A stretch of DNA of 64,000 nucleotides, taken from Escherichia phage EI-SP-GF. Below are positions 36,112 through 50,110 of the stretch, piece by piece (the first letter of the stretch is position 1; every line of letters begins with the position of its first letter). The stretch is taken from sequence record OR992645.1. The stretch is one strand, 5' to 3'. The notes beneath the pieces were generated by a model, which had not been told where the DNA came from, did no database searches, and saw only the letters and a program-made list of their open reading frames with translations. The translations under genes and the position numbers were made by a program.

Positions 36112-36142
36112 ACAAACATAGACTAGCAGAGAGGGATAAATT

Positions 36143-36334: not shown

Positions 36335-36344
36335 GTATCGTACC

Positions 36345-36677: not shown

Positions 36678-36697
36678 GAAAGTGCAGGAGATAAAGT

Positions 36698-37133: not shown

Positions 37134-37459
37134 CAGAGATCATTATTTCAACTGCAGGGTATGTATTCCTGACAATCATTGCTCTGACCATTTTGGTGGC
37201 GGTATATGGATTTGTTATTCTACCTATTCTTGAGACAATTAGTTTGTGTCGGTGTTGGAGAAAGGCTTACGGTCCACAGCCGTGGAGGGACTGGCCCCAC
37301 CTGGTTCGCATAGCGTTCTCTTATGCTTATGATCACGCCAGCAGTGCATGCATAACAGGGTATCACGCTCACAATTGGAACTGGGAAGGGTTGGGTAGAT
37401 GGAATGTTATAAAGACCATACCTCTACGTATGCACAAGCCTAAAAACAAAGACAATTGA
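37130..37459 (+). CDS. Membrane protein (one N-terminal TM helix)
   Basis: Hydrophobic stretch AGYVFLTIIALTILVAVYGFVILPIL; AAGGGG RBS. Confidence 0.55.
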   Translation: MTEIIISTAGYVFLTIIALTILVAVYGFVILPILETISLCRCWRKAYGPQPWRDWPHLVRIAFSYAYDHASSACITGYHAHNWNWEGLGRWNVIKTIPLRMHKPKNKDN

Positions 37460-37480
37460 TACTTGAAAATCCCTGGCACA

Positions 37481-37530
37481 TCAAGTATAAGGAGGATTTC
37501 TAAAATGGATTTCCTCCTTTTGATATTTTA
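37481..37530 (+). terminator. Hairpin plus T-rich tract; candidate terminator closing the replication block
   Basis: AAGGAGG...CCTCCTT inverted repeat followed by TTGATATTTTA. Confidence 0.4.
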
Positions 37531-37770
37531 CCTAGCCGGATATTTTAAAATTCTTAGAAAATCAGAAAATGGATCGAAAACTAAAATGGATTTTTCAAGA
37601 CAGGCGCGATAAGATGTGCTGCTCATTCTATCGTTCGCACCGTACTTTAAGTTACTATTCCAGATTTTCCGCACATACCCTCACCCTTCTACCAGAACTT
37701 TCCCAGCTTACCTTTGACCTTTTATAACAATAAGCCCATTATTCTCAGTAGGTTTTGATACATCTCTCTC

Positions 37771-37858
37771 AGTACTCGATCTGTTTTTCGTTTCAAAGAT
37801 TGAATTTTCTGAAAATTTTTCTCGATAAATTTCTTAGTACTCGATCTGTTTTTCGTTT
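37771..37858. repeat. Direct repeats (23 bp AGTACTCGATCTGTTTTTCGTTT x2, plus degenerate third copy) in non-coding region
   Basis: Identical 23-mers at 37771-37793 and 37836-37858; related CGATTTTTCGTTTTCGG at about 37915. Confidence 0.7.
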
Positions 37859-38060
37859 TCTGAATCAGATTTTCTGGAAATCGTTCCGGAGCTCGACCTG
37901 AAATTTTTGGGGACGAAATCGATTTTTCGTTTTCGGAAATGGATTTTTAAAATTTGTATATGGAAATATTTAAGGAGGTATTATTTTATATAGAATTGTC
38001 ACGGTAGGTAATTAGCATGCTAACTAAATTTATGAAATGCGAAAAGTTCTCATTTAGAAT

Positions 38061-38260
38061 TTTGAATGATAATCATTCTCGTTTGCAGAATAACGGGCAC
38101 CCCCGGTGATTGTCTCCCGGCCCCTGTTGCCCCGGCTTGTTATTATAGTATCACACAGGACAAAGAAAGCAAGGATTTTTTGCATAAATTTTTAAATGAT
38201 AATGATAACCGTTCTCATTTTATGCAGCGCCCATCCCCGGTGGTTGTCTCCCCCGTCACC
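38061..38260. repeat. Duplicated roughly 65 bp GC-rich element
   Basis: Two copies sharing AATGATAAT...TTCTC.TTT...CCCCGGTG.TTGTCTCCC, at about 38061-38130 and 38190-38260. Confidence 0.55.
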
Positions 38261-38719
38261 GGTGCCTGCCGTCCTTTCGATAGGTATATTGTGCCACCTG
38301 TCGGGGCCGCTGTCAACACTTTTCAAAAAAAAAATTCTAACCTGATGCGCTAACCGTTGCAACCTGGCGGGGCCAGCCTGACCAGGTAGGAGAGAGTGAA
38401 AGCTTGCAAACCTGGTAGGCCTATGCTACAGGGCAGGTAACAATTGAAGAGGAGGTACAAAAATGAAAGGTAATTTGATCCCCTGGAAATGTAGCGATTA
38501 ATGACGCTGAGGCTATCGCCCTGGTTGAAAAGGCTATGGCGGGAGCGTTGGAACATAAAGAAGAGTACGAAAAAATGATGGTTAACCTGGTAGGGGCGGC
38601 GGCTGGAGAATTCTGCCCAAAAAATAATTCTAACTAATGGTTGACAGCTCGGATAGTTCTGTTATTCTTATCCTTGCAAGGTGAACAACACCACACTAAT
38701 TAACAGAGAGGATAAAATC

Positions 38720-38917
38720 ATGAACGCCTACGGAATTAAAGTACGTCGCAACACTTGCCAGGCCGTCACCGATCAAATGATTTGCCAGGTGGACGTAACC
38801 ATCAACAACGGGCAAGGCCTTTATAAATTCCGTCGCGGTCAGAGCTATACCCGGCAACAGCTTAATCGTTGCGCCCTGACAAAAGGCCAGATCAACCACT
38901 GGTTTAATAAAAAATAA
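38720..38917 (+). CDS. Small hypothetical protein
   Basis: ATG 38720 after GAGAGGATAAAATC RBS. Confidence 0.55.
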   Translation: MNAYGIKVRRNTCQAVTDQMICQVDVTINNGQGLYKFRRGQSYTRQQLNRCALTKGQINHWFNKK

Positions 38918-38920
38918 GTA

Positions 38921-38949
38921 TTGACATACAGTCCGACACCAAATACACT
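38921..38949 (+). promoter_or_regulatory. Sigma70-like promoter (TTGACA-17-TACACT)
   Basis: TTGACA 38921-38926; AAGAGGATAAAATC RBS and ATG 38982 downstream. Confidence 0.55.
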
Positions 38950-38981
38950 AAAAGCACAAAAGACACTAAGAGGATAAAATC

Positions 38982-39380
38982 ATGAAAACCACTACCTTTA
39001 ATTTTGATAATGCGGACTTTTCTTTTTCTGATGTCAAGAACTGCCGCCGTGATCGTGGATTTTACAAGGCTTATAATCTGGTGGGCCTGGACGATGACAA
39101 TAATTTGCACGAAGTAGCTGAGATCCGGTATTATGCCGCCGCCAGCGGGAACACTCAATACTGCGTTTTTTGGATTCACGACAACAAGAACAATAAGTAC
39201 GGTTATACTGGCGGGAAGGCGAGCGGTCACGGTTACGATAAAGCTAATGCAGCACTTGAGAGCGCATTAAATGCTATGGGGATCACTGCCAACGGCTGGA
39301 TCTATGAAGAAGAGTTTTTGTCGGCACTTGCTAACCACCTGGGCTATAAAAAGCACATTGTAACATGCGCCCACGAATAA
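38982..39380 (+). CDS. Hypothetical protein
   Basis: 132 aa ORF with strong RBS. Confidence 0.6.
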   Translation: MKTTTFNFDNADFSFSDVKNCRRDRGFYKAYNLVGLDDDNNLHEVAEIRYYAAASGNTQYCVFWIHDNKNNKYGYTGGKASGHGYDKANAALESALNAMGITANGWIYEEEFLSALANHLGYKKHIVTCAHE

Positions 39381-39387
39381 AAAATTA

Positions 39388-39416
39388 TTGACACGCTGCA
39401 AAATTAAAGTAAACTA
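39388..39416 (+). promoter_or_regulatory. Promoter (TTGACA-N13-TAAAGTAAACT type) with 5' UTR hairpin
   Basis: TTGACA 39388-39393; same TAAAGTAAACT block as in the 44 bp repeat; hairpin GGCGGGAATGTTTCCCGCC follows. Confidence 0.55.
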
Positions 39417-39463
39417 GGCACAAAAGGCGGGAATGTTTCCCGCCAACACAAAGGAAAAAGATC

Positions 39464-39859
39464 ATGAATAAGAACGTACGCCGCATCATGAACGAACTGG
39501 CAAACGATGAAAAAATTATTGATATGCATTTGGTCAACATTTGCCGCCGTTGTGTAACATATAACAACCGCGCCGCAAAAGCGCGTGAGATGAACGCAAA
39601 AGGCACCTTAAAGCCCTTTCAGGTGGTTGTAAAATCTATAACTAATGCAGCAGGCCAGGCGCATGACCACAACAACGAGAGCACTAATATTGATCCGTCT
39701 TACGTAATGAAACGGATCCGGACTTGCAAGAATAAAGATCAGGTGTATAACGTCATAGATTGGCTGGACTCCATGGGCGATGTTGTTTATAATAGGTTTT
39801 CTGCAGCTATCGAGATCCAGCTTGACAGACTGGACGGGAAAGTACTGAAAACTTACTAA
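39464..39859 (+). CDS. Hypothetical protein
   Basis: 131 aa ORF; GGAAAAAG RBS. Confidence 0.6.
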   Translation: MNKNVRRIMNELANDEKIIDMHLVNICRRCVTYNNRAAKAREMNAKGTLKPFQVVVKSITNAAGQAHDHNNESTNIDPSYVMKRIRTCKNKDQVYNVIDWLDSMGDVVYNRFSAAIEIQLDRLDGKVLKTY

Positions 39860-39861
39860 GT

Positions 39862-39906
39862 TTATTTTTAGATGGCCTTGACTCCAGGGCCATCAATAAA
39901 GTAAAC
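39862..39906 (+). repeat. Conserved 44 bp element, copy 1 (TTATTTTTAGATGGCCTTGACTCCAGGGCCATCAATAAAGTAAA)
   Basis: Identical in three copies; contains ATGGCC/GGCCAT inverted repeat and TTGACT...TAAACT promoter-like spacing. Confidence 0.8.
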
Positions 39907-39938
39907 TAATCCCAGTTAAGCTAAAAGGGGGCTTAAAG

Positions 39939-40058
39939 ATGAGCACTACACGCCAGCACACAAAGGTAACTATTATCGTTTGCATCATTGGTTATATCCT
40001 GGCGCAAATGTTGATGGGTAGCGCCAACAGTGTCGCAAAATTTTTCTTAAACTTTTAA
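39939..40058 (+). CDS. Putative small membrane peptide (39 aa)
   Basis: GGGGG RBS then ATG directly after the 44 bp element; hydrophobic core VTIIVCIIGYILAQMLMG. Confidence 0.3.
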   Translation: MSTTRQHTKVTIIVCIIGYILAQMLMGSANSVAKFFLNF

Positions 40059-40086
40059 TTGACAAGCTAACTTAGATCAGTATACT
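40059..40086 (+). promoter_or_regulatory. Sigma70-like promoter (TTGACA-16-TATACT)
   Basis: TTGACA 40059-40064, TATACT 40081-40086; hairpin CGGGAAAACTTCCCAG then AAGGAGA RBS. Confidence 0.6.
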
Positions 40087-40136
40087 AAACACATCAACGG
40101 GAAAACTTCCCAGAACACACAAAAGGAGAAAACACC

Positions 40137-40478
40137 ATGACTACTATGACCGCCGCAGAAAAAGCTATTCAGATCGCTGCCCTGAAAAAACAGATCGCAG
40201 ACCTTGAGAATAAGATCGATAACTTTGAAATCGACGAGGACAAGTACGACGAAAACTATGATGAATGGTTAGACGAGATCTACGGCGAAATTATGATCGG
40301 AAACATTTCTTTTCTTCCGTCGCGTATCCTCAAGGAGCTAGATCCTATCGCTTACCGCTGCGGATTTAGCGACTACATCGACAGCCTGGATATTGAGGAC
40401 GATGAAGAATACCAGGAATTACAGACAGAGTTGGAAGAAGCAAAAGAAGAGCTTGCGGAGCTGGAAGAAAACGAGTAA
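40137..40478 (+). CDS. Highly acidic coiled-coil protein
   Basis: 113 aa, Asp/Glu-rich (EDDEEYQELQTELEEAKEELAELEENE). Confidence 0.6.
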   Translation: MTTMTAAEKAIQIAALKKQIADLENKIDNFEIDEDKYDENYDEWLDEIYGEIMIGNISFLPSRILKELDPIAYRCGFSDYIDSLDIEDDEEYQELQTELEEAKEELAELEENE

Positions 40479-40480
40479 GA

Positions 40481-40525
40481 TTATTTTTAGATGGCCTTGA
40501 CTCCAGGGCCATCAATAAAGTAAAC
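40481..40525 (+). repeat. Conserved 44 bp element, copy 2
   Basis: Identical to 39862-39906. Confidence 0.8.
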
Positions 40526-40567
40526 TTTATACTGTTAACACTGAACTAATGCATAGGAGTTAAAACC

Positions 40568-40813
40568 ATGGCAGCACTAATCACTAAATATTACGCCCCT
40601 ACCAACACCAAAAGCGCCCGTATCATGGTAAAAGGCTTCGGACGTAAAAAGGTTTACACCTGGGATTATTCCCTAGACATGGAAGACAACTACACCAACG
40701 CGATGACTGATTTTATTAATGAACTAAATAAGCAGATCTTAACCAATTATAAGGTGACCGACATCGCCTATGTTGGGGAAGGTGGGATCTGTTTTGTCGG
40801 TATTGTCAAATAA
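40568..40813 (+). CDS. Hypothetical protein
   Basis: AGGAGTT RBS; 81 aa. Confidence 0.55.
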   Translation: MAALITKYYAPTNTKSARIMVKGFGRKKVYTWDYSLDMEDNYTNAMTDFINELNKQILTNYKVTDIAYVGEGGICFVGIVK

Positions 40814-40825
40814 ACTGTTTTTTCG

Positions 40826-40849
40826 GTGGCCCTGGTGGCAGGGCCATCT
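40826..40849 (+). terminator. GC hairpin (TGGCCCTG-gtgg-CAGGGCCA), candidate terminator or processing site
   Basis: 8 bp stem after stop of upstream gene; T-rich tract upstream rather than downstream, so function uncertain. Confidence 0.35.
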
Positions 40850-40888
40850 ATAAAGATAGTTTATTAACACCATGAAAGGAGAAAGTAC

Positions 40889-41242
40889 ATGATCAGCGGG
40901 GCTAGTTTTATTATTGGCGCTATTGCTACAGCTTTAATTGTAAACAAGATCCAGGATAAAAAGGAAAGAGGAAGTACCGCCCTTGCAGAATATCCATTTT
41001 GGACATTCAACGATAACGAAGATTATATTATAAAGTATAAAAATAAAGAAGGTTACCAAGTAACACCGCGACCGATCCCGGCTTACAAGATGCAGGAAAC
41101 ACTATACCGCTTGGAGGCAGGGGGCGCAAAAATTGTGGACTTTTGGGGATACGATCACACAGATCAGGAAGTTATAAAGCGCCGTATCCGGGCTATTCAG
41201 GCCAATATTGAAGTTAGCAAGGGGGGAATATATGAAGATTAA
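40889..41242 (+). CDS. Membrane-anchored hypothetical protein
   Basis: N-terminal hydrophobic MISGASFIIGAIATALIV; AAGGAGAAAG RBS. Confidence 0.55.
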   Translation: MISGASFIIGAIATALIVNKIQDKKERGSTALAEYPFWTFNDNEDYIIKYKNKEGYQVTPRPIPAYKMQETLYRLEAGGAKIVDFWGYDHTDQEVIKRRIRAIQANIEVSKGGIYED

Positions 41243-41429
41243 TTTTGAGAAAATTGTAAAGCGATCTCATGATTCCGAAGAGCTGCCGGAACGCCGCCAG
41301 CGTAACAATAAACTGAATAAGCCAAAAAGATTTGGGAAGATCTGGCGGAATCATTATGATCGTAAATTGCCGGGCCTCCTTTTGGAACGTGAACGGCAGG
41401 CGGAACGATACCGCCACAAAGGCAACTAA
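41232..41429 (+). CDS. Small basic protein
   Basis: ATG 41232 after GGGGGG RBS; Arg/Lys-rich. Confidence 0.45.
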   Translation: MKINFEKIVKRSHDSEELPERRQRNNKLNKPKRFGKIWRNHYDRKLPGLLLERERQAERYRHKGN

Positions 41430-41436
41430 CAACCAA

Positions 41437-41466
41437 CGCCCCGCCATCGTGCGGGGCTTTTTATTT
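41437..41466 (+). terminator. Rho-independent terminator
   Basis: GCCCCGC-catcgt-GCGGGGC then TTTTTATTT. Confidence 0.7.
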
Positions 41467-41587
41467 CTACCCTACAAATAGCGCCCCTGGTTGGCCCCAC
41501 AACGCCCTAAAAGCCCCCTACCCATGCAATCCCCTTTCTTAACCTGAAAACATCGTCAAAGGCTGTTTTAAAGCGTTAAAAATATTG

Positions 41588-41615
41588 TTGACATCTAAAA
41601 TATTCTAGATATACT
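41588..41615 (+). promoter_or_regulatory. Sigma70-like promoter (TTGACA-16-TATACT)
   Basis: TTGACA 41588-41593, TATACT 41610-41615. Confidence 0.6.
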
Positions 41616-41650
41616 AATCACATCAAAGCGAGAAGTAAGGAGTAAACGCC

Positions 41651-41911
41651 ATGCGTAAATTGAAAAATTTTGATAAAGTCGATGTTGTCCTAAATAATTT
41701 TTACTACTGCAATAACAAGGCCGTTTGGTGGCGTGATAGTTCCACCGATAAAGTCAAGGCGCGCTTTCTCCAGGGGCACTGGCAAGGCCGCCCAGTGATT
41801 AAAATCATGGGGCAATTGGTAGCGTTTAAAAATTGCCGCCGTGTTGATGACGTTGAAGAGATTTTAAACATTTTGCGCCACAATAATTTAAAAAATAGTG
41901 TTGACAAGTAA
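41651..41911 (+). CDS. Hypothetical protein
   Basis: TAAGGAGT RBS; 86 aa. Confidence 0.55.
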   Translation: MRKLKNFDKVDVVLNNFYYCNNKAVWWRDSSTDKVKARFLQGHWQGRPVIKIMGQLVAFKNCRRVDDVEEILNILRHNNLKNSVDK

Positions 41912-41928
41912 ATCTCAATAAGTATACT
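41901..41928 (+). promoter_or_regulatory. Sigma70-like promoter (TTGACA-16-TATACT) with 5' UTR hairpin
   Basis: TTGACA 41901-41906, TATACT 41923-41928, hairpin GGCGGGAAAACTTCCCGCC. Confidence 0.6.
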
Positions 41929-41985
41929 TAAACACACAGGCGGGAAAACTTCCCGCCACCAACAAAGAAAATAGGAGAAAATATC

Positions 41986-42609
41986 ATGACTACCGTTAAC
42001 ATTACCACAGGTTACAATTTAGCTTTCGACGTGCTGACCGACGAACAAAAAGAAAAAGCCGTGGAAATGGTCCGCGAAAGAGAAGAACACAGCGGGGATA
42101 ACTTTTTTGCAGAAAGTGTAATTGAGTACTATAAAGAATATGTTTTTCCAGAGTACGGCCTTGAAGATACCGATGTACATTGGTCAGGCTTTTGGTGCCA
42201 GGGTGACGGCGCGTCAATCAGTGCGGAAAACGTGGATTTAGAAAAATTCTTGCGTAAAGTCAAGTCTCTGACTAAATTCCGCTCAATTCGTCACTTGTTC
42301 GGCACAATGCACGATGGCGAGTTATCCGCAAGTGTTGAGCGTGATCCATATAGCCGCTATAGTCACGAAAACACTGTAAACGGGTACATCGATACTACAT
42401 GGCTAGACCTGACCACCAAGCAAGAAAACAAAGTGGAAGATCTGGAAGAGCTGATCACCGAGACGGTACGGGAGTTATCCCGCAAGGTTTACGTAGACCT
42501 GGAGGAGGCCTATCTAGAACAGTTCACTACCGAAAACCTGATCGGCCTTATTGAGGCCAATGATTGGCGGTTTGATGTCGATGAACACGGTGAGATGACT
42601 TTTTCATAA
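41986..42609 (+). CDS. Acidic hypothetical protein (207 aa)
   Basis: ATAGGAGAAAA RBS; no motif recognised. Confidence 0.65.
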   Translation: MTTVNITTGYNLAFDVLTDEQKEKAVEMVREREEHSGDNFFAESVIEYYKEYVFPEYGLEDTDVHWSGFWCQGDGASISAENVDLEKFLRKVKSLTKFRSIRHLFGTMHDGELSASVERDPYSRYSHENTVNGYIDTTWLDLTTKQENKVEDLEELITETVRELSRKVYVDLEEAYLEQFTTENLIGLIEANDWRFDVDEHGEMTFS

Positions 42610-42698
42610 ATAAAGTGTTGCAATAACCTAAAAACCTGCTATATTAAAACTCAAGGGGCAAGACGTTTGCCCCCACACAAAACAAAGAGGTAAACATT

Positions 42699-43079
42699 AT
42701 GAAAAACACTACTAAAGCTATTGACACCGTTATGTTTAACCTGGTTACCTTTCGCGAGGATATGAAAGATCTTCCACGTGAAACAGTGTGCGATCACATT
42801 GAAAACTATCGCAAACTAATCAAAGAGTTGCCTTTAAAACGTGATCAGTATGCGGCTAACGCCATGCTTAATGCCATGATCAAAAAGATGATCCAGTGTG
42901 ATTTAACTTTGGCCTATGACTATGCTGGTGGTCGTTTTGCAGTATACAATCAGCCCGTGCCCGGTATGGGCACCACCGAAGAATTGCACGCGCTCAATCT
43001 AAAACAAGACGTGTGGGATAGTATGCCCCGCGTGGTGGTGTGGGCAGAAAGCGGAAAGATTTACGGCGATAATTTTTAA
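42699..43079 (+). CDS. Hypothetical protein
   Basis: AAGAGGTAAACA RBS preceded by hairpin GGGGCAAGACGTTTGCCCCC. Confidence 0.6.
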   Translation: MKNTTKAIDTVMFNLVTFREDMKDLPRETVCDHIENYRKLIKELPLKRDQYAANAMLNAMIKKMIQCDLTLAYDYAGGRFAVYNQPVPGMGTTEELHALNLKQDVWDSMPRVVVWAESGKIYGDNF

Positions 43080-43143
43080 TCAGGTAACAGGCGGCATATT
43101 TGCCGCCTTATTGTTAAACAGAACTGCAAAAGAGGTACATAGA

Positions 43144-43515
43144 ATGGAATTTATTATTTTGGCTGTATTGGTTGCCTTGTTTAACGCCTGGATCGCTGGC
43201 AAGATGGGCAGATCCGCCTTTTTATGGTTTATTATATCTATTTTCCTGGGGGTGGTTGCAACTATTGTATTGGTTATCCTTGCAATTGTTGACAAGGGGA
43301 ATAATAGAAAGGGTAAAGTATTTTCAGACCTGTACGACGCTCAAACGTTTGTCAACGCCTATTATAGTGATCTTCCAGTCTCCCTACGCTGCAGCCTGGC
43401 ACAACAGGTTTTTGATGAGGCTAAAACCAGAGATCAAGCCCATGAGATATGTTTAACTGAGGCGGATCGCCTATTTGAGAGGAATAGAAAATATGTGGGC
43501 CAACCGTTTAAATAA
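43144..43515 (+). CDS. Membrane protein (two predicted TM helices)
   Basis: ATG 43144 after AAGAGG RBS and hairpin GGCGGCATATTTGCCGCC; hydrophobic N-terminus. Confidence 0.55.
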   Translation: MEFIILAVLVALFNAWIAGKMGRSAFLWFIISIFLGVVATIVLVILAIVDKGNNRKGKVFSDLYDAQTFVNAYYSDLPVSLRCSLAQQVFDEAKTRDQAHEICLTEADRLFERNRKYVGQPFK

Positions 43516-43738
43516 TGCCACGTTAATTAATTCCTTTAGTGAAGATTTGAAGCCAGCCGCCTGGCGTGACGGATTCAATAACGAACGCTTTATTTTCAGG
43601 CCTGATCTTGAGGAATTTTATAACAATGGATCGAACAACAGCGGAGATAATTTTTCTTGTGGTGTGTGTCGTGATAGGACTCCTGGGGGCCATTGTAGAT
43701 CGCGTCACTACTACCGGGAGGAAAGGGGGAGACGATGA
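43493..43738 (+). CDS. Hypothetical protein (uncertain; competing small TM ORFs in other frames)
   Basis: ATG 43493 after GAGAGGAA RBS; alternative 43626-43751 encodes a TM peptide. Confidence 0.25.
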   Translation: MWANRLNNATLINSFSEDLKPAAWRDGFNNERFIFRPDLEEFYNNGSNNSGDNFSCGVCRDRTPGGHCRSRHYYREERGRR

Positions 43739-43855
43739 CAACCAAGGATAAGCCATGCACCGATAAGGTGCGCCGCGTTATGGTATGGCTTGAGATTATC
43801 GCCCTTGAAATATTGCTAGGCGTAGGGATGTACTTTATCGCTGTAAGTAACTAGG
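43736..43855 (+). CDS. Putative small membrane peptide (39 aa)
   Basis: AGGGGGAG RBS; hydrophobic WLEIIALEILLGVGMYFIAV; followed by terminator. Confidence 0.3.
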
Positions 43856-43857
43856 AA

Positions 43858-43890
43858 CGGCCCCCGATCATGGGGGCCTATCTTTTTAAA
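43858..43890 (+). terminator. Rho-independent terminator
   Basis: GGCCCCC-gatcat-GGGGGCC then TATCTTTTT. Confidence 0.7.
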
Positions 43891-43993
43891 AAATTTTTCT
43901 TCCGTGGTGTTGCAATCCGGTCCGGAATGTGGATAATAACAATCAACGGGGAGCTAATCCTCACCACCACAAAAACCAGAAAGGAGAAACAAA

Positions 43994-44194
43994 ATGAGCA
44001 ACAATATCCGCGTTATTAACTTCAAAAAAGAAGAAAAAATTGCCGTGCTGATTGACGGTCAAGAAATCTTCAAGGGCGACTATGAAGATCATCAAACGGC
44101 GATTAGTATCACTCGCGTGATTGGTTACCATAATTTTTACCCCCAAGGAGCTGAGGCAGCGGTTAAACGAATCAAAGAGATTGTAGGCCTGTAA
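43994..44194 (+). CDS. Hypothetical protein
   Basis: AAGGAGAAACA RBS; 66 aa. Confidence 0.55.
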   Translation: MSNNIRVINFKKEEKIAVLIDGQEIFKGDYEDHQTAISITRVIGYHNFYPQGAEAAVKRIKEIVGL

Positions 44195-44197
44195 AAT

Positions 44198-44242
44198 TTA
44201 TTTTTAGATGGCCTTGACTCCAGGGCCATCAATAAAGTAAAT
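44198..44242 (+). repeat. Conserved 44 bp element, copy 3
   Basis: Identical core to 39862 and 40481, ending GTAAAT instead of GTAAAC. Confidence 0.8.
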
Positions 44243-44287
44243 TTAAACCCTGTTAAAATACCACGCAGTTAACAAGGAGTGATAGAC

Positions 44288-44587
44288 ATGTTTATCCAGG
44301 CTAATAATCTTTATTTCTTTGATGGTCAGATCGTAGATGGTGTGGAAGTGGAGATCACTGGGTGCCCTGGCGGTCAGGCTATGACTTTTCGGAATAATGC
44401 CTTTGATGATTCTCATATCGTTATGAGAATGGAAGTTACGAAGCTGGATGACAAGAAAACACTCATTGACTATTCTGTGAAAGATCATCCAGACTACCAC
44501 ATGATCTATGGTGATTTGTGCATTGTTGACCGTGACAAGGTGAGCGGCATTGTGATCGCTATTGTGAACGATGTTTTCTCAAACTAA
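44288..44587 (+). CDS. Hypothetical protein
   Basis: ATG 44288 after AAGGAG RBS. Confidence 0.55.
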   Translation: MFIQANNLYFFDGQIVDGVEVEITGCPGGQAMTFRNNAFDDSHIVMRMEVTKLDDKKTLIDYSVKDHPDYHMIYGDLCIVDRDKVSGIVIAIVNDVFSN

Positions 44588-44604
44588 TTTCAACAGGTGA
44601 TTTT

Positions 44605-44955
44605 ATGAAAGTTAAATTATATTACCTTAATGAGCTTAACCCCCTTGCCCAGGTCCGCGCCCTAGCTAATACCTTGATTTGTGAGAAATCTGTATATTGT
44701 GTTGAGCTTAACGCCATGCGTGAACGTCTCAAAGGTGGTTACTTTAACATCCATGCTGCAATCAACGGCCTGAATATGGAATTTATCCGTTTACGTAACA
44801 GCCGCCGGAATCTGGCAAGAATGGAACAAGATCCGGCCCACCTTCGTAAGCTGGTTATTGAAAATCATCTGATGTTTAATGCCGAGGGTGATTATTACCA
44901 TTTTCACCGCAAACGCTGGTACCGTGGCGGCAATACAGGCAAGAATGCAAAATAA
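44605..44955 (+). CDS. Hypothetical protein
   Basis: 116 aa ORF. Confidence 0.55.
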   Translation: MKVKLYYLNELNPLAQVRALANTLICEKSVYCVELNAMRERLKGGYFNIHAAINGLNMEFIRLRNSRRNLARMEQDPAHLRKLVIENHLMFNAEGDYYHFHRKRWYRGGNTGKNAK

Positions 44956-45157
44956 GGCCCCAGGCAGGGCCTACAGCGACCTAAACACTAGCAGGCTATG
45001 CAATCGCATAGCCTTTATTGTTTTGACGTTACAACGGCCCTAAGGCGCTTAAAAAATTTTTAAAGAAGTACTTGCATCATTCCCGACAATATGGATAATA
45101 AGAGTTGTCGAGGGGGGAGGCCCCCAATCATTGACCAGATAGATAGGAGTTAAAATC

Positions 45158-45442
45158 ATGGCTATTGTTACCGCTGGCGATGTAGTAGAAATGGAAGCAA
45201 AATACTTAAAAGCGGGTATGCATATCCTACGGAATGATCAAGAGTTATTATTAACGATGGTTGACTATAATCCCGGCCAGGATTATCCAAGCATCGACTA
45301 CTTTTTTGAGTATGTTAATGAAGAGTTGAAAGAGGATGAGGCCTACTGCGGTGAGTTCTGCAACTTCTTTTGTCCTGATGAGGTTGTAAAGGTTATTTAT
45401 CAACCTGGCGTAGCTTTCCCGCTGCACGCTATCAATAAATAA
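45158..45442 (+). CDS. Hypothetical protein
   Basis: TAGGAGTT RBS; 94 aa. Confidence 0.55.
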   Translation: MAIVTAGDVVEMEAKYLKAGMHILRNDQELLLTMVDYNPGQDYPSIDYFFEYVNEELKEDEAYCGEFCNFFCPDEVVKVIYQPGVAFPLHAINK

Positions 45443-45506
45443 ACCTGGCGGGGCCGAAAAGGCCCCTACAGCATAAAATTATGAAAATAAAGAGAGGTAA
45501 ATCATC

Positions 45507-45740
45507 ATGATGGAACAAATTAAACGCACCGAGGCTATTAATGGCAATGTGATCTATTTTGTTAGCAATAACGAGAAAGGCGTACCATATGCAGCGGTAA
45601 TAGTACAGCCTGACGGTGATTATTGGTTTACTGTATACGGATCTTATTCTTTCGGGCGTCCGGTGCATGATAGAATTTTGAAAGTAGCGAACCCTACCGG
45701 GAAGAATATCACAGCAGAAAAATTTTTTGAAAATAGTTGA
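45507..45740 (+). CDS. Hypothetical protein
   Basis: AGAGAGG RBS; 77 aa. Confidence 0.5.
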   Translation: MMEQIKRTEAINGNVIYFVSNNEKGVPYAAVIVQPDGDYWFTVYGSYSFGRPVHDRILKVANPTGKNITAEKFFENS

Positions 45741-45764
45741 CATGACCATATAAAACTGTAATAT
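45737..45764 (+). promoter_or_regulatory. Sigma70-like promoter (TTGACA-16-TAATAT)
   Basis: TTGACA 45737-45742, TAATAT 45759-45764. Confidence 0.55.
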
Positions 45765-45815
45765 ATAAATCAAAGGGAGCAACAAGCCCCACCAACCACA
45801 AAGAGGATAAAAATC

Positions 45816-45995
45816 ATGGCTATTATTGCAAAGACCGAGATCGTAGGCTTAGATTCTATTCTCCTCGCATATGAGGAAGCTATAGAAATGTATGTGGTTT
45901 CCTATGGTGAGTATATCCGTGAATATGAATCTATTGATCTAGCTTTTGAATGTTATATTCGCCAGGTTAATAAAGCGTACGATGATTATCGTTAA
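45816..45995 (+). CDS. Small hypothetical protein (59 aa)
   Basis: AAGAGGATAAAAATC RBS; below ORF-track cutoff. Confidence 0.4.
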   Translation: MAIIAKTEIVGLDSILLAYEEAIEMYVVSYGEYIREYESIDLAFECYIRQVNKAYDDYR

Positions 45996-46087
45996 AATAG
46001 TTTGACAACAAACAACCATCTAACAAAGCATAATACATAAGGTGGTAGAATGATCCGCCACCCCGGAACAAAGAAGAGGTAAACACC

Positions 46088-46333
46088 ATGAAAAGCAATA
46101 AAGGTTATAACGGTTACAAAAACAAAACTCATTGGAATGTAAGCCTTTGGATTAATAACGATGAGTCATTGTACCGGTTGGCCCAAGGCTTTATTAACGC
46201 TAATGCTAATCGTAATGATGCGGCGCGGGATATGATGCTTTTTCTGGAGCTAACCGGACAAGATAAGACCCCGGACGGCTTCAAGTACAGCACTACGGCG
46301 ATCCGTGCCGCGATGGTTGGAATGAAACACTAA
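46088..46333 (+). CDS. Hypothetical protein
   Basis: AGAAGAGGTAAACACC RBS after hairpin GGTGGTAGAATGATCCGCCACC. Confidence 0.55.
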   Translation: MKSNKGYNGYKNKTHWNVSLWINNDESLYRLAQGFINANANRNDAARDMMLFLELTGQDKTPDGFKYSTTAIRAAMVGMKH

Positions 46334-46524
46334 AAGCACATAGCCGCCTTACCCTGGGGCTGTGGTAGCGGCCCCATGAATAAGGTTACTAACAGAAGAG
46401 AATAAACACCATGAAACAGAAATTAATCGATGCAGTGATCTTGATTATTGCCCTGGGTATTGGCCTGATTGCAACCATGTCTAATATGATCTTGTCTTCC
46501 AACGGTATCGGGTGAGGTTGGCAA

Positions 46525-46740
46525 ATGATCACTAACAAAACTGGCAAAACAGAATTTTTACGCAACTTACAGATCGGCAAGCCTGAGATCTGGTACTGCA
46601 CTAAAACACCGCGTGACGAAATGAAAGACTTCACCGCCACGCTGCAACGGGTAAAGATATCTATCACGCAGAAAAAGGCCTTACTAGTGGTGGAAGGGGA
46701 AATCCCCCAAACCGTTGTTATAGTTGAGCGTACAGCATAG
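46525..46740 (+). CDS. Hypothetical protein
   Basis: 71 aa ORF; GGTGAGG RBS. Confidence 0.5.
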   Translation: MITNKTGKTEFLRNLQIGKPEIWYCTKTPRDEMKDFTATLQRVKISITQKKALLVVEGEIPQTVVIVERTA

Positions 46741-46831
46741 TTTAATTTATACCGATACCCGAAAATTAACCAACAAATCATAAACAGGCGGTTACCGCCG
46801 CCTTAAACGTAGCAGAAAGAGGATAGACACA

Positions 46832-47122
46832 ATGAAAAAGATGATCGCAGTGGTTGCCCTGGTTGTTGGACTTAGTGCGCCTGCAATGGCTAATGAGCTG
46901 GCAAAAGAGGTTAATCTAACGGATATTCATGCCGTCAATCGAATCGGGGTTACTTATCGCTTATGCCTTGCCACTAAAACTTTTAATGACGGTACAACAG
47001 AGTACTACGGATTCGAGGGTATCCGGTGCGGTGAACTTGCTCGCGACCTTAAGGAAGATCCAGACCTGGAAGATTTGCCGATGACGGTAAACGGTAAAGC
47101 TTACGTAAACCGCCAACAATAA
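46832..47122 (+). CDS. Secreted/periplasmic small protein
   Basis: Signal peptide MKKMIAVVALVVGLSAPAMA; AAGAGGATAGACAC RBS. Confidence 0.6.
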   Translation: MKKMIAVVALVVGLSAPAMANELAKEVNLTDIHAVNRIGVTYRLCLATKTFNDGTTEYYGFEGIRCGELARDLKEDPDLEDLPMTVNGKAYVNRQQ

Positions 47123-47138
47123 GTAAGGGCGATGTAAA

Positions 47139-47330
47139 ATGAATACTGAACAAGTTAGAAAGGTATTGGCGGTACTGCGTTATCATAATCATAAAAAGGT
47201 GATAGACGATCCTGATTATGTAGATTCAAGCCTGGAAGAGGACACGCTACAAGCTATAGGCCATATGCAAGAATTGCTTAAACGCATGACAGAGAAAAAC
47301 CGACCGGACTACATAGGGGGTAAAATATGA
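47139..47330 (+). CDS. Hypothetical protein
   Basis: 63 aa ORF. Confidence 0.45.
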   Translation: MNTEQVRKVLAVLRYHNHKKVIDDPDYVDSSLEEDTLQAIGHMQELLKRMTEKNRPDYIGGKI

Positions 47331-47638
47331 TCGCTATTACGCCAACCGTTTTAGATTGGTATCGGCAACGCATAGCGCCTCCACTGGCTATCTTCAAAGA
47401 TGCGGAAGCAAAACAACGCCGGATCTCAATACATGAGATCATCAACCTTAACGCTGGAGGCACACCATACCGCCCAGGACCTGGCCGTGAGATGGACAAT
47501 ACATTGGCGATCCTGAAGATACGCCGTAAACGGTCCTCCCTTACGCTGGATTCATTACACACAATGCAGTCTCCGTTCCAGGTGACTGGGAAACGGATCG
47601 CCAGGTCCTGGACAAAGGCCAATGACCGGACCGTATAA
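47327..47638 (+). CDS. Hypothetical protein
   Basis: GGGGG RBS; 103 aa. Confidence 0.5.
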   Translation: MIAITPTVLDWYRQRIAPPLAIFKDAEAKQRRISIHEIINLNAGGTPYRPGPGREMDNTLAILKIRRKRSSLTLDSLHTMQSPFQVTGKRIARSWTKANDRTV

Positions 47639-47772
47639 ATAAAAGTGTTTTGGTACTGATTTTGGGGTTGACTTGTTCGGCCCCTTTTGCTATTCTTATT
47701 AAACGGGCGGCACTTGGGAACAGGTGGAGACAATCACCGGGCCTGCCTGTCATATAAGAACTATAAAAACCG

Positions 47773-47801
47773 TTGACATCTGCCATGGGGTGGGGTAACA
47801 T
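47773..47801 (+). promoter_or_regulatory. Sigma70-like promoter (TTGACA-17-TAACAT)
   Basis: TTGACA 47773-47778; AGAGAGGAAAACAC RBS downstream. Confidence 0.5.
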
Positions 47802-47855
47802 TTATCTTGAAGGGGCAAAGGTGCCCACACAACAACCAGAAGAGAGGAAAACACT

Positions 47856-48128
47856 ATGTCAAGCTGGATTAATCAAGAAGTCGAATCACGTTTTAATGCT
47901 ATTTGGGATCTCATCGAAAAAGAAGACGGCACATCAAGCCCCTACCTCAACAATTTGGAATTCCATTTTGTGGAAGCGATGAACGCAGAACATGATCACG
48001 AAGGTGGTGCGGACGAGTTCGCTAAAGGGTATGGCTTCAACAATGCCAACGAAATGATCGAGGCGGTTGTACTCCAGGCTGAGGAAGATTATCAATTAAA
48101 AACGCTTGAATTCTGCCGCCGTAAGTAA
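47856..48128 (+). CDS. Hypothetical acidic protein
   Basis: 90 aa ORF with strong RBS. Confidence 0.55.
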   Translation: MSSWINQEVESRFNAIWDLIEKEDGTSSPYLNNLEFHFVEAMNAEHDHEGGADEFAKGYGFNNANEMIEAVVLQAEEDYQLKTLEFCRRK

Positions 48129-48188
48129 TAAGATAATGACACGGGCCGGGAGGCCCACTAATCAGAACCGCACAAAGAGGTAAACATC

Positions 48189-48452
48189 ATGAAACGTCTT
48201 GATCAGCTTAAACTAGTTCAGTACATGGCCTACAAAATTCTTGAAGTCCAAAAAGGTAGCAAAAAAGAGGTTTGCGAGAAAGCGTACAAGATCTTTACTC
48301 GTAAAAAAGACGATTGGATGTTGCGCCAGACTAAAAAGGCTGACATCTTGGGGTACCTGGAAGAAGAGATCCGACTTGAAGAGCAAGAAGAGATCCGCCG
48401 TAGTGAGGCAGATTATCAGGCAGCCTGGGAAAGCTGGATGAATAACAAATAA
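48189..48452 (+). CDS. Hypothetical protein
   Basis: AAGAGGTAAACATC RBS; 87 aa. Confidence 0.55.
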   Translation: MKRLDQLKLVQYMAYKILEVQKGSKKEVCEKAYKIFTRKKDDWMLRQTKKADILGYLEEEIRLEEQEEIRRSEADYQAAWESWMNNK

Positions 48453-48519
48453 TACAACAGGTTGCATGGTCAGGGGCGATAAAGCCCCTTGATCACATAA
48501 AAAATTATGCTATCCCTTG

Positions 48520-48548
48520 TTGACAGGGATCGGCAGTTTTGCTATATT
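48520..48548 (+). promoter_or_regulatory. Sigma70-like promoter (TTGACA-17-TATATT)
   Basis: TTGACA 48520-48525, TATATT 48543-48548. Confidence 0.6.
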
Positions 48549-48597
48549 CTTTTTTGAAGGGAAGTTGTAAGAAAATTAACTAAGAGGTAAAAACACC

Positions 48598-49017
48598 ATG
48601 AACATTAAATCTGATAATCCGGCATATAGCTTTGATAACGCTTTTTGTCACGGTCCGGCGGCGAAAGGATTCGAAATCGATGGTAAACTAGTTATTGTCA
48701 ATGTTGACGGGGAAGAGGTTGCAGTATATCCGGTGGCAGACGTTAAAAGCCGTCTACAATGCCGCATCGATGTTACCGCCTACCAGCTTGATCCGGTCCG
48801 GGTAGTTGCCCTGGTCCTGGAAGAAGAAATTAAAGCAATGCACCACAGCAACAAGTTTATTGGTGACGCTCAAGATAATATGAAGGTGTGCCGCCATAAA
48901 GTTAATGAAGTGCTTAAAGAATATGGCTTTAAAGATCTGATGATCAAACGTGAGGAAAAATTCCGCTACCGTAACGACCTGGCAAATCGGATTTTTGAAA
49001 TATACGAATCATTATAA
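48598..49017 (+). CDS. Hypothetical protein; last gene of plus-strand array
   Basis: AAGAGGTAAAAACACC RBS; 139 aa; followed by terminator. Confidence 0.6.
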   Translation: MNIKSDNPAYSFDNAFCHGPAAKGFEIDGKLVIVNVDGEEVAVYPVADVKSRLQCRIDVTAYQLDPVRVVALVLEEEIKAMHHSNKFIGDAQDNMKVCRHKVNEVLKEYGFKDLMIKREEKFRYRNDLANRIFEIYESL

Positions 49018-49036
49018 TTTCTTAACTGAATTATCA

Positions 49037-49063
49037 AGGGGCTTAAAGGCCCCTTTCTTTTTG
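49037..49063 (+). terminator. Rho-independent terminator
   Basis: GGGGC-ttaaag-GCCCC then TTTCTTTTT. Confidence 0.7.
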
Positions 49064-49670
49064 TCTGCTCTTCTCCTACCATAAACGGCCCTACCTGGCA
49101 AGTGGAATAATTGACTAGCCATCAATCCCACACACTGTACAAATATACATGGAAAATAACTATTGCATAATCTTTCATTGTGTGGTAGCAAGGCCATTTT
49201 TACCCGTTTTCTCTCCCAAAAGTGCACGTAATGCAGCTATTGCACAAATTTTAACCTGATGCATATCTCCAATATCTTGTCAACAACTAAAAATCTTTAT
49301 AAGTCATACACTTACACAGCATCGAAAGCGTGTTCTACGCGAAAAATCGAGTATAACTATAGCCGCCAGATCTCAGAATTCACGTACGCACGCCATTCTA
49401 TAGCCTGCAAAGTATTTATTCCAACCACAGAATAACGGAATAGTCAATACCTGCATAAAATAATTATTCGTGTAAACTGCATAACATAAATCAGCTCAGG
49501 TGTCAACATTTTTCGTAAACAGTCCGAAATTATCACGATGAGTTATCATAAACAGAGAAATCTTTAGTCGTCTAATGTTTACTGTACATTACTATACTGA
49601 CTGGAATCATTAGATGACTAAGAAAAAGATAAGAAATAATTAATAATGTAATTGTTTTACCTGTAACAAT

Positions 49671-49849
49671 AAGGCAACTATGCAAACGAATGGCATGGCG
49701 CGACGGAGTCGCGACATAATATAAAAGCAGTAACCATCACCCCCGTGATGGTTTTTCTGCAATCTATTATTCAGATCATAGTTGCCTTGTATTTAGTTAA
49801 TCATGACATAACAAGCAAGGCAACTGTAGATCTTCTAATAGTTGCCCTG
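49671..49849. repeat. Inverted repeats of AAGGCAACT / AGTTGCC(T/C)T (four half-sites) plus CGCGAC-gga-GTCGCG palindrome
   Basis: AAGGCAACT at 49671 and 49816; ATAGTTGCC at 49777 and 49838; GC palindrome at about 49698-49715. Confidence 0.65.
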
Positions 49850-49879
49850 CTTTTATATTATGTCATAGATTATTAACTT

Positions 49880-50110
49880 ATTAACTGTCAGCTTGTTGGC
49901 TGTTAGCTTGTCAATTGTTATCTTGTTAATTGTTTTCATGCAAACGAATGTCATGGCTTATCATCTCTGTGTAAACAGTTTGGGCGTAAACTATTCAGGC
50001 GTAAACAGTCTATGAGTAAACAGTGAGATATGGAATAGTAACAGCCGTTATTGTGTCATATTGTGCTGCAGTGCGTTATGTTGTGCCATATTGTGTCACT
50101 ATTATGTCAG
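49880..50110. repeat. Three short tandem-repeat families in non-coding DNA (CTTGTT-type, GTAAACAGT x4-5, ATATTGTG x3)
   Basis: GTAAACAGT copies between about 49971 and 50035; TTGTTAGCTTGT-like units 49885-49935; ATATTGTG units 50058-50095. Confidence 0.65.

Follow-up and report, generated by a model that had tools for sequence, protein, structure and literature searches.

Here, we analyzed a stretch of 64,000 nucleotides (the window) from Escherichia phage EI-SP-GF (sequence record OR992645.1), which contains, close to the genome end, a block of 29 small genes with recurring leader cassettes. Our preferred reading, to which we assign a probability of about 70%, is that this block is an accessory ('hyperplastic') early-gene region resembling those that carry the elements known as PeSLs in other phages, and that its reusable promoter-hairpin-Shine-Dalgarno (SD) cassettes serve both as 5' stabilizers and as recombination patches. 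In its full form, such a cassette begins with the preceding stop codon in an AT-rich stretch, followed by sigma70-type -35 and -10 hexamers and a GC-rich hairpin, placed 9-12 nt after the -10 hexamer or, in a repeat that we call D1, around the -35 hexamer. A G-poor, A/C-rich linker that is predicted to be unpaired then leads to the SD sequence AGAGGTAAA, a spacing of 7-8 nt and the ATG. Of what is reported below, the features of the sequence, the degree to which they are conserved and the position of recombination joints were observed directly. The block as a whole is as follows.

38641..49055, + strand, whole block: terminal accessory and putatively early gene region, 29 genes in ~6 terminator-bounded units, ending ~1 kb short of the terminal repeat

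Promoter-like sites were scored against the model TTGACA-N16-18-TATAAT by the number of matches out of 12, and sites with at least 10 matches were considered strong. By this measure, the block holds 12 strong sites on the + strand and none on the - strand, as against 2.0 +/- 1.4 in dinucleotide shuffles (maximum 7 in 200 shuffles). Intergenic leaders account for nine of the 12 (38641, 38921, 39388, 40059, 41588, 41901, 45737, 47773 and 48520), and seven weaker candidates with 8-9 matches were also found (39878, 40497, 42618, 43910, 44214, 45072 and 47668), which gives ~16 promoters for 29 genes. An earlier inspection made without database searches (the sequence-only reading) had proposed a near-consensus promoter for almost every gene; the nine near-consensus sites are real, whereas the proportion was overstated, with a total of ~16 for the 29 genes. 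Its assignment of the sites to the sigma70 type used by the host RNA polymerase is well supported by their presence, strand specificity (12 versus 0) and strongly conserved hexamers. AAAA-rich stretches are found upstream of the block promoters. All nine strong intergenic sites are orthologues of the promoters P195A, P195, P194, P192, P186, P185, P174, P168 and P164 listed for phage rV5 (Kropinski et al., 2013; PMC3606486, Table S4), and for phage Gotham, 14 PhagePromoter predictions covering this block are entered in the GenBank record (MT682716). As such, the array of promoters is not new, having been predicted for rV5 in 2013. The rV5 promoters were described as extensively homologous to the Escherichia coli consensus, and no homologues of T4 late-transcription factors were found in that phage (PMC3606486); in the related phage CB7, no RNA polymerase gene was found according to the literature (PMC7344957). 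The main promoter sites in the block are listed here.

38641..38668, + strand, promoter TTGACA-16-TATTCT (10/12, TG extended -10), rV5 P195A; weak palindrome only, no proper hairpin
38921..38949, + strand, promoter TTGACA-17-TACACT (10/12), rV5 P195; leader hairpin absent
39388..39415, + strand, promoter TTGACA-16-TAAACT (10/12), rV5 P194
40059..40086, + strand, promoter TTGACA-16-TATACT (11/12), rV5 P192
41588..41615, + strand, promoter TTGACA-16-TATACT (11/12), rV5 P186; leader hairpin absent
41901..41928, + strand, promoter TTGACA-16-TATACT (11/12), rV5 P185
42618..42645, + strand, weaker promoter TTGCAA-16-TATATT (9/12, TG extended -10)
43910..43937, + strand, weaker promoter TTGCAA-16-GATAAT (9/12)
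45072..45099, + strand, weak promoter candidate TTGCAT-16-GATAAT (8/12)
45737..45764, + strand, promoter TTGACA-16-TAATAT (10/12), rV5 P174
46002..46034, + strand, doubtful promoter with TTGACA, a 21-nt spacer and CATAAT
47773..47801, + strand, promoter TTGACA-17-TAACAT (10/12), rV5 P168
48520..48548, + strand, promoter TTGACA-17-TATATT (11/12, TG), rV5 P164; leader hairpin absent

Approximately 14 GC hairpins end 19-40 nt upstream of an ATG. Eight leaders also bear a promoter, and in these a distance of 9-12 nt separates the -10 hexamer from the start of the hairpin (P about 7e-9, a rough binomial estimate from intergenic hairpin density), and five further leaders (before genes 43144, 45507, 46411, 46832 and 48189) have a hairpin and an SD sequence and lack a promoter. 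The GC hairpin that had been postulated at the 5' end of the transcripts thus exists for part of the block: ~14 leader hairpins are present and eight are linked to promoters, but four strong promoters have none and five hairpins are promoter-less. The example quoted for it, GGCGGGAAAACTTCCCGCC, was located at 41939-41957. The complete promoter-hairpin-SD module is found at about eight genes, and a strict scan (promoter of at least 9/12, stem of at least 5 bp with at least 4 G-C pairs) detected four complete modules in the block. When 22 leaders (positions -60 to -1, picked by annotation alone) were compared with shuffled sequences, the mean folding z-score was -1.45 (P = 2e-4), and the SD sequence was mostly unpaired in the predicted folds. 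The conserved A-rich SD block noted previously was confirmed; its consensus is aAaGAGGtAAAaCAyc-ATG, with G dominating positions -12 to -9. The A content of the leaders is 50-53%, compared with 32% for the block, and the linker contains 11% G. The individual hairpins are listed below.

39426..39444, + strand, leader hairpin GGCGGGAA-tgt-TTCCCGCC, 10 nt after -10, ending 19 nt before ATG
40099..40111, + strand, leader hairpin GGGAA-aac-TTCCC, 12 nt after -10
41939..41957, + strand, leader hairpin GGCGGGAA-aac-TTCCCGCC, 10 nt after -10, z = -5.4
42655..42673, + strand, leader hairpin GGGGCAAG-acg-TTTGCCCC, 9 nt after -10
43089..43108, + strand, promoter-less hairpin AGGCGGCA-tatt-TGCCGCCT with weak terminator-like tail TATTGTT, rV5 t184
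43948..43965, + strand, imperfect leader hairpin GGGGAGCTAATCCTCACC, 10 nt after -10
45112..45125, + strand, leader hairpin GGGGG-agg-CCCCC, 12 nt after candidate -10
45450..45466, + strand, promoter-less hairpin GGGGCC-gaaaa-GGCCCC
45775..45790, + strand, weak leader hairpin GGGAGCAACAAGCCCC, 10 nt after -10
46041..46062, + strand, leader hairpin GGTGG..CCGCC/CCACC; U.G pair here is C-G in relatives
46355..46376, + strand, promoter-less hairpin TGGGGCTGT-ggta-GCGGCCCCA
46786..46803, + strand, promoter-less hairpin AGGCGGT-tacc-GCCGCCT
47813..47826, + strand, leader hairpin GGGCA-aagg-TGCCC, 11 nt after -10
48143..48156, + strand, promoter-less hairpin GGGCC-ggga-GGCCC

Conservation was measured as the fraction of aligned cells that differ between the window and nine Vequintavirus relatives. 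This fraction was 0.9% for the -35 hexamers and 2.3% for the -10 hexamers, compared with 9.1% for the promoter spacers, and 3.1% for the stems of the leader hairpins, compared with 13.8% for their loops. Codon positions 1, 2 and 3 of the genes differed in 3.3%, 1.8% and 11.4% of cells, respectively. The low divergence of hexamers and stems indicates purifying selection on both. Relatives have aaaa or gaaa in place of the loop ggga of hairpin 48143, with an invariant stem, and the loop gaaaa of hairpin 45450 is inverted to ttttc in Phage 206 with the stem kept. Where only one side of a stem has changed, G.U pairing on the + strand is in most cases still possible (21 cells). Stems that are kept while loops change, together with stem changes compatible with + strand wobble, suggest that the hairpins act as + strand RNA. 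The A/C-rich linker differed in 11.2% of cells and appears to be constrained in composition rather than in sequence.

The D1 repeat is a variant of the cassette. It is 51 nt long and has three copies that are 94-100% identical (39857, 40476 and 44193) and a diverged one (40811). The top of its hairpin contains TTGACT, and a TAAACT -10 hexamer is placed 18 nt downstream of TTGACT. The stems of D1 differed in 1.8% of cells and the loops in 13.9%. D1 is restricted to Vequintavirus (120 records), where usually three copies are found per genome.

39857..39907, + strand, D1 copy 1: AT-rich stretch, 10-bp hairpin GATGGCCTTG/CAGGGCCATC around TTGACT, then TAAACT; 9/12 promoter at 39878-39907
40476..40526, + strand, D1 copy 2, 98% identical to copy 1
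40811..40861, + strand, diverged D1 copy, 69%; hairpin kept via wobble-compatible changes, -35 lost
44193..44243, + strand, D1 copy 3, 94%

The block is accessory, and its gene content varies among relatives. Eight differences in gene content were found among the nine relatives, and the joints of four of them lie inside a cassette (one in D1, two in the SD/ATG leader and one at a -35 hexamer). First, ECP26 lacks 39907-40467 through a clean exchange between D1 copies 1 and 2. Second, four phages are without gene 46088, and in these the next gene is joined, inside the SD/ATG region, to the promoter and hairpin from upstream. Third, an additional gene is present in Gotham and naswa, bordered by duplicated linker and SD sequences. 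Finally, in naswa three phi92-type cassettes replace 46011-46460 of the window, with the crossover at or just after the -35 hexamer at 46002, which reveals cassette exchange between phage subfamilies. At 11374-11986 of our naswa sequence (L009), three consecutive promoter-hairpin-gene cassettes of the phi92/phAPEC8 type can be seen. A larger loss was observed in rV5_ev146 (LR699804, named as an evolved rV5 derivative), which lacks the segments 39457-39951, 41377-47732 and 48490-49037; the second of these deletions (6.3 kb) has joints that are not in cassettes, and the loss of this segment implies that ~17 genes are dispensable for propagation. Exchange of single genes was also evident. The DUF7249 gene at 46088-46333 has ~84-95% DNA identity to copies in Phapecoctavirus and in 350-380 kb Asteriusvirus jumbo phages (copies compared: 595-834 of sequence L013 and 584-823 of sequence L014). 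The homology spans only ~codon 9 to the stop codon, and a lineage-specific leader precedes each copy. These limits of the homology suggest that the gene was transferred recently, as a single unit, from one unrelated phage to another.

Other phages also have this promoter-hairpin-SD cassette, namely phi92, phAPEC8 and KKP3954 (Stephanstirmvirinae), where it is more regular in the early blocks, and the 383-kb Asteriusvirus jumbo phage BF17. The Stephanstirmvirinae pattern is TTGACA-N17-TAnnnT, ~10 nt ending in cAyATAG, GGCGG(G/C)AA..TT(C/G)CCGCC and AAGAGA..ATG. For 33 leaders from four other phages, the mean folding z-score was -2.06 (P = 4e-7). A BLAST search with the phi92-type module returned Stephanstirmvirinae and relatives and no T4-like phage among the matches listed. 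A further idea, which we regard as tentative and rather improbable, is that the promoter-hairpin-SD leader is one horizontally mobile regulatory family shared by three or more unrelated groups of large E. coli myoviruses, namely Vequintavirinae, Stephanstirmvirinae and Asteriusvirus (350-380 kb). It would be an integron-like platform that moves expression-ready early ORFans, in which a factor of the host or the phage would specifically recognize the RNA of the hairpin GGCGGGAA-N3-TTCCCGCC and its variants, rather than the hairpin being a generic stabilizer.

These observations suggest how the cassettes might operate. Judging from their sequence and conservation, E. coli RNA polymerase with sigma70 would start at each cassette soon after DNA entry, so that the block would be expressed early. 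If transcription starts 6-8 nt after the -10 hexamer, the gap of 9-12 nt would leave an unpaired 5' tail of ~2-5 nt at the predicted start sites. A hairpin so close to the 5' end could hinder the 5'-end-dependent decay by RppH and RNase E, as in ompA and papA, and the leader hairpins would then stabilize the messenger RNAs. The hairpin might act as an intercistronic barrier or attenuator wherever transcription reads through, as well as in the five leaders that lack a promoter, and folding predictions suggest that the unstructured A-rich linker would leave the SD sequence free for efficient translation. The cassettes also serve as homology patches at which genes are inserted, deleted or swapped, as the comparison of relatives shows, because they are repeated within the genome and are common to other coliphage lineages. 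The T4 protein Srd reportedly stimulates RNase E. Srd-like 'anti-sigma' proteins are encoded by rV5-like phages and have been proposed to switch between early and late expression (PMC3606486). Speculatively, RNase E stimulation by such proteins would give 5' protection an obvious value.

Several points weigh against this reading. The complete module is present at only ~8 of the 29 genes (four by the strict scan), and four strong promoters (38641, 38921, 41588 and 48520) have no proper hairpin while five hairpins have no promoter; one function for all hairpins is therefore unlikely. The predicted unpaired tail of 2-5 nt is at the edge of the reported range for blocking RppH and RNase E. It should be noted that the divergence contrasts count aligned cells of related genomes and not independent events, and that in four of the eight indels the joints lie outside any cassette. 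Alignment of 34 paralogous hairpins by MAFFT and RNAalifold gave a consensus of only 4 bp with almost no covariation, due to stems of differing length falling out of register, and is uninformative either way. In addition, our literature searches found no transcriptome, transcription start site, timing or RNA half-life data for Vequintavirinae.

Transcription units in the block are delimited by five canonical intrinsic terminators with a U-tract (41438, 43859, 44993, 47664 and 49036), and a promoter or promoter candidate lies ~25-130 nt downstream of every internal one. The independent expression of each gene that had been supposed is not supported; these terminators divide the block into approximately six units of 1-8 genes with internal promoters. 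Terminators t184, t181, t177 and t164 of rV5 correspond to sites in the block (PMC3606486, Table S4), and the terminator at 44993 shows a full compensatory path from U-A through U.G to C-G among relatives.

41438..41466, + strand, intrinsic terminator GCCCCGC..GCGGGGC, then TTTTTATTT
43859..43887, + strand, intrinsic terminator GGCCCCCGATCATGGGGGCC, then TATCTTTTT, rV5 t181
44993..45023, + strand, intrinsic terminator AGGCTATGC..GCATAGCCT, then TTATTGTTTT, rV5 t177
47664..47696, + strand, intrinsic terminator GGGGTTGACTTGTTCGGCCCC, then TTTTGC; contains a promoter-like site TTGACT-17-TATTCT (9/12, TG)
49036..49064, + strand, intrinsic terminator AAGGGGCTTAAAGGCCCCTT, then TCTTTTTG, closing the unit, rV5 t164

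The leader hairpins might themselves be mainly attenuators or terminators that insulate the cassettes from read-through and limit over-expression, with 5' stabilization being incidental, which is the view of the authors who described PeSLs. PeSL stem-loops were effective terminators in reporters (PMC2839356; PMC4122927), five block hairpins follow a stop codon at a distance of 8-46 nt without an intervening promoter, the D1 hairpin is upstream of its own predicted start site and would thus act only on upstream transcripts, and hairpin 43089 was called terminator t184 in rV5 (PMC3606486). However, a U-tract directly after the leader hairpins is absent, save for the weak case of 43089, whereas the five canonical terminators have one. 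Moreover, the hairpin position is fixed relative to the -10 hexamer (9-12 nt) and the ATG (17-40 nt) and not to the upstream stop codon, and a terminator just after a strong promoter would attenuate its own transcript too. As an account of the hairpins in general, this view, the main alternative to ours, is possible but doubtful; for D1 and the hairpins that lack a promoter, it is probably correct.

We consider it quite unlikely that the early genes are jointly switched off or on by a factor of the phage or the host that specifically recognizes the conserved hairpin or palindrome, with this element serving as the target of an RNA-binding protein or nuclease or, for D1, as the site of a dimeric DNA-binding repressor over the -35 hexamer. 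Such a role would fit hairpin sequences that are unusually alike across unrelated phages (GGCGGGAA-N3-TTCCCGCC and GGGCGGCA-atgg-TGCCGCTC, preceded by cAyATAG in phi92-like phages), the three D1 copies with 94-100% identity over 51 nt and 7-bp inverted arms flanking the -35 hexamer, and the Srd-like proteins mentioned above. However, stem sequences differ widely within the window and loops change or even invert, substitutions in the D1 arms preserve wobble pairing only on the + strand and better fit an RNA hairpin than a DNA operator, and the block contains no boxA-like element and no match to an Rfam family.

Still less probable is that the block is mainly read from a long + strand unit starting ~26 kb upstream (rV5 unit 10-1-238-164), with minor local promoters and with cassettes that persist via recombination or gene conversion: the rV5 paper did propose one large transcriptional unit over these genes (PMC3606486), gene conversion could homogenize the near-identical D1 copies and cassettes are exchanged between lineages, but five canonical terminators interrupt the block with a promoter or candidate after each, promoter strand bias is complete (12 to 0), and in orthologous copies the hexamers are far more conserved than the spacers, which argues for selection on promoter function and not on repeat identity.

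Other candidates were considered and rejected. Lambdoid nut sites were not supported, since CGCTCTT, TGCTCTT and GCTCTT(T)A (boxA) do not occur in the block and the loops are variable (13.8%), one being inverted. Terminators of antisense transcription were suggested by T-rich runs that follow some hairpins on the - strand, but this was rejected as an account of the hairpins in general, since the phi92-type copies are preceded by cAyATAG, with no T-run on that strand. D1 as a double-stranded DNA operator is disfavored by its arm substitutions. A search of 30000-53000 against Rfam 15 with a permissive E-value gave a single hit, to snR75, which lay outside the block, was below threshold and is attributed to chance, and 47700-47775 (between P47668 and P47773), checked for a small structured RNA, was dropped at a z-score of -1.03.

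Approximately 30 small genes had been counted by the sequence-only reading, in agreement with the 29 open reading frames of 34-207 aa on the + strand between 38720 and 49017, all of which start with ATG. Each of the 29 matches a PHROG family labeled 'unknown function', and Pfam gives only Phage_1_1 and DUF7249, both uncharacterized; the statement that none of the products has a recognizable function is therefore upheld. PDB sequence searches with four block proteins gave nothing below E = 0.2, and no paper mentioning DUF7249 by name was found in a literature search. Among the labels carried by some GenBank records, 'DNA translocase' (gene 48189) and 'Rel homology domain' are unsupported, the mapped products 48189 and 48598 having no Pfam match, and 'YeeU-like antitoxin' could not be assigned to any gene of the window. 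Seven genes overlap or abut the preceding gene, have no leader of their own and are translationally coupled. The block genes may have an anti-defense or host-takeover role. The genes are listed below.

38720..38917, + strand, gene, 65 aa, phrog_7119
38982..39380, + strand, gene, 132 aa, phrog_7028
39464..39859, + strand, gene, 131 aa, phrog_13245
39939..40058, + strand, gene, 39 aa, phrog_16391
40137..40478, + strand, gene, 113 aa, phrog_9294
40568..40813, + strand, gene, 81 aa, phrog_3199
40889..41242, + strand, gene, 117 aa, phrog_12734
41232..41429, + strand, gene, 65 aa, Pfam Phage_1_1 (T7 gp1.1-like, function unknown), overlaps previous gene
41651..41911, + strand, gene, 86 aa, phrog_11241
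41986..42609, + strand, gene, 207 aa, phrog_5162; PDB sequence search without match
42699..43079, + strand, gene, 126 aa, phrog_7352
43144..43515, + strand, gene, 123 aa, phrog_13090; 'membrane protein' annotation in relatives
43493..43738, + strand, gene, 81 aa, phrog_12060, overlaps previous gene
43735..43854, + strand, gene, 39 aa, phrog_13629, overlaps previous gene
43994..44194, + strand, gene, 66 aa, phrog_12347
44288..44587, + strand, gene, 99 aa, phrog_7366
44605..44955, + strand, gene, 116 aa, phrog_8549; missing in 4 of 9 relatives
45158..45442, + strand, gene, 94 aa, phrog_12610
45507..45740, + strand, gene, 77 aa, phrog_9227
45816..45995, + strand, gene, 59 aa, phrog_9374
46088..46333, + strand, gene, 81 aa, Pfam DUF7249 / phrog_871; missing in 4 relatives, replaced in 2
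46411..46515, + strand, gene, 34 aa, phrog_14631
46525..46740, + strand, gene, 71 aa, phrog_5988
46832..47122, + strand, gene, 96 aa, phrog_9845; N-terminus resembles a signal peptide (read by eye)
47139..47330, + strand, gene, 63 aa, phrog_9599
47327..47638, + strand, gene, 103 aa, phrog_13681; missing in 6 of 9 relatives
47856..48128, + strand, gene, 90 aa, phrog_7287
48189..48452, + strand, gene, 87 aa, phrog_11701
48598..49017, + strand, gene, 139 aa, phrog_12277; missing in Gotham and rV5_ev146; PDB sequence search without match

The window belongs to a Vequintavirus (rV5-like) phage and thus to Vequintavirinae, not to the T4-like phages. The block is 96.8% identical to that of Escherichia phage LL12, and 303 phage records match it, nearly all of them Vequintavirus. 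According to the annotation of phage inoa, a + strand unit begins near 12.3 kb of the window with rIIA/rIIB, helicase, methylase, primase and DNA polymerase, continues with ~60 small genes and ends at 49.07 kb. It is followed by a 2.6-kb non-coding stretch and then by a convergent array of small genes on the - strand (51700-64000). The 459-bp terminal repeat annotated in Gotham corresponds to 50110-50568 of the window, and the counterpart block of phi92 adjoins the right terminal repeat of that phage; on this basis, the block occupies the last 10 kb ahead of one of the physical ends of the DNA in the virion, with transcription running toward this end. The non-coding stretch (49070-51700) contains the site homologous to the Gotham repeat. 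Arrays of short repeats lie just upstream of this site (GTAAACAGTTTAGGC x3.6 at 49971-50024, TGTTAGCTTGTCAAT x2.3 at 49901-49934 and TATTGTGTCA x6 at 50049-50109), and these arrays may be packaging or terminus signals. On the other side of the block, a gene-poor gap at 37760-37950 has three direct repeats of ~47-55 nt with a spacing of 65-74 nt, and the same gap holds a long AT-rich hairpin at 37903-37940.

Promoter density in the block is ~1 per kb, similar to that in neighboring small-gene blocks, and leader hairpins appear denser than in 30000-38640, an unquantified impression. Outside the block, a perfect 12/12 promoter (TTGACA-17-TATAAT) is found at 30320, with a 9-bp hairpin at 30331-30357 that has the -10 hexamer inside its loop; this promoter with a hairpin over the -10 hexamer (30320-30357) is another PeSL-like subclass. 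Additional promoter-hairpin-SD modules were seen at 21857-21940 and, on the - strand, at 57445-57369 and 53191-53106, at sites that include the replication-gene region and the convergent - strand array.

If our reading is correct, it would explain how rV5-like phages, which are commonly proposed for therapy and biocontrol, keep fast-changing accessory early genes ready for expression, and it would extend modular shuffling of the PeSL type beyond T4-like phages, including between unrelated phage groups. Cassette boundaries would be natural, tolerated insertion sites for phage engineering, and the 29 ORFans, which mostly lie in laboratory-dispensable DNA, would be sensible candidates for anti-defense or host-takeover screens. 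What we add is modest: the hairpins in the leaders, the D1 cassette and the part that both play in the shuffling of cassettes, also from one lineage to another; the rest was largely anticipated. The same promoters are given in Table S4 of the rV5 paper (PMC3606486) and in the Gotham record (MT682716), whereas the leader hairpins, the SD leader, D1 and the link to gene turnover are not described there. In Certrevirus phages CB7, CR3, CR8 and CR9, which belong to the same subfamily, sigma70-like promoters (consensus AAAA-N3/4-TGTTGAC-N17/19-TATAAT) show a similar clustering in a region of short hypothetical open reading frames taken as early genes, but no role of stem-loops or recombination was reported (Buttimer et al., 2020; PMC7344957).

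The leaders can be compared with three known kinds of element. First, the 5'-terminal stem-loops of ompA and papA stabilize messenger RNA (Emory, Bouvet & Belasco, 1992; Bouvet & Belasco, 1992; listed in PMC3997798) and comprise a stable hairpin a few nucleotides from the 5' end, followed by an unstructured leader and an SD sequence; relative to their predicted 5' ends, the block leaders would have a similar layout. In contrast with ompA and papA, the 5' ends in the block are predicted from -10 spacing alone, and some block hairpins are not 5'-terminal in a primary transcript because they lack a promoter. Second, in phAPEC8 (NC_020079), a 20-nt 'PHIRE' motif annotated as a putative, phage-specific promoter coincides with the leader hairpins GGGCGGCAATGGTGCCGC (249-268, 630-649, 1480-1499 and 2895-2914 of our sequence L011); the motif is the hairpin, yet the actual -35 and -10 hexamers are upstream of it.

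The closest likeness is to the PeSLs (promoter-early stem-loops) of the T4-type phages RB49/phi1, PST and nt-1 (Arbiol et al., 2010, PMC2839356; Comeau et al., 2014, PMC4122927). A PeSL is defined by a sigma70-consensus early promoter with an AT-rich upstream stretch, a GC-rich stem-loop in one of five positions, an SD sequence and an ATG; PeSLs stand upstream of ORFans in hyperplastic regions, where indels arise via recombination, and in reporter constructs their stem-loops are effective terminators and their promoters very strong, with mini-circles forming during infection (PMC2839356; PMC4122927). The block shares with them a stop codon in an AT-rich stretch, a sigma70-type promoter, a GC-rich stem-loop, and an SD sequence with ATG, all in the same order. 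Its cassettes are likewise intergenic, upstream of ORFans (29 of 29 unknown) in a plastic region of which 6.3 kb is dispensable, and indel or replacement joints between close relatives fall within cassettes (four of eight here). The stem-loop position is variable here too: eight lie downstream of the -10 hexamer, three (D1) over the -35 hexamer and one (P30320) over the -10 hexamer. Two differences should be mentioned. The stem-loop is mostly in the 5' untranslated region after the -10 hexamer, whereas phi1/RB49 PeSLs lie between the -35 and -10 hexamers or overlap the latter. In addition, the lineage is Vequintavirinae, together with Stephanstirmvirinae and Asteriusvirus, and not T4-like; a literature search found no paper mentioning both PeSLs and Vequintavirinae. 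Thus, the block works like PeSLs in other phage lineages, and the likeness is one of architecture and behavior, with no claim of descent from the PeSLs of RB49/phi1.

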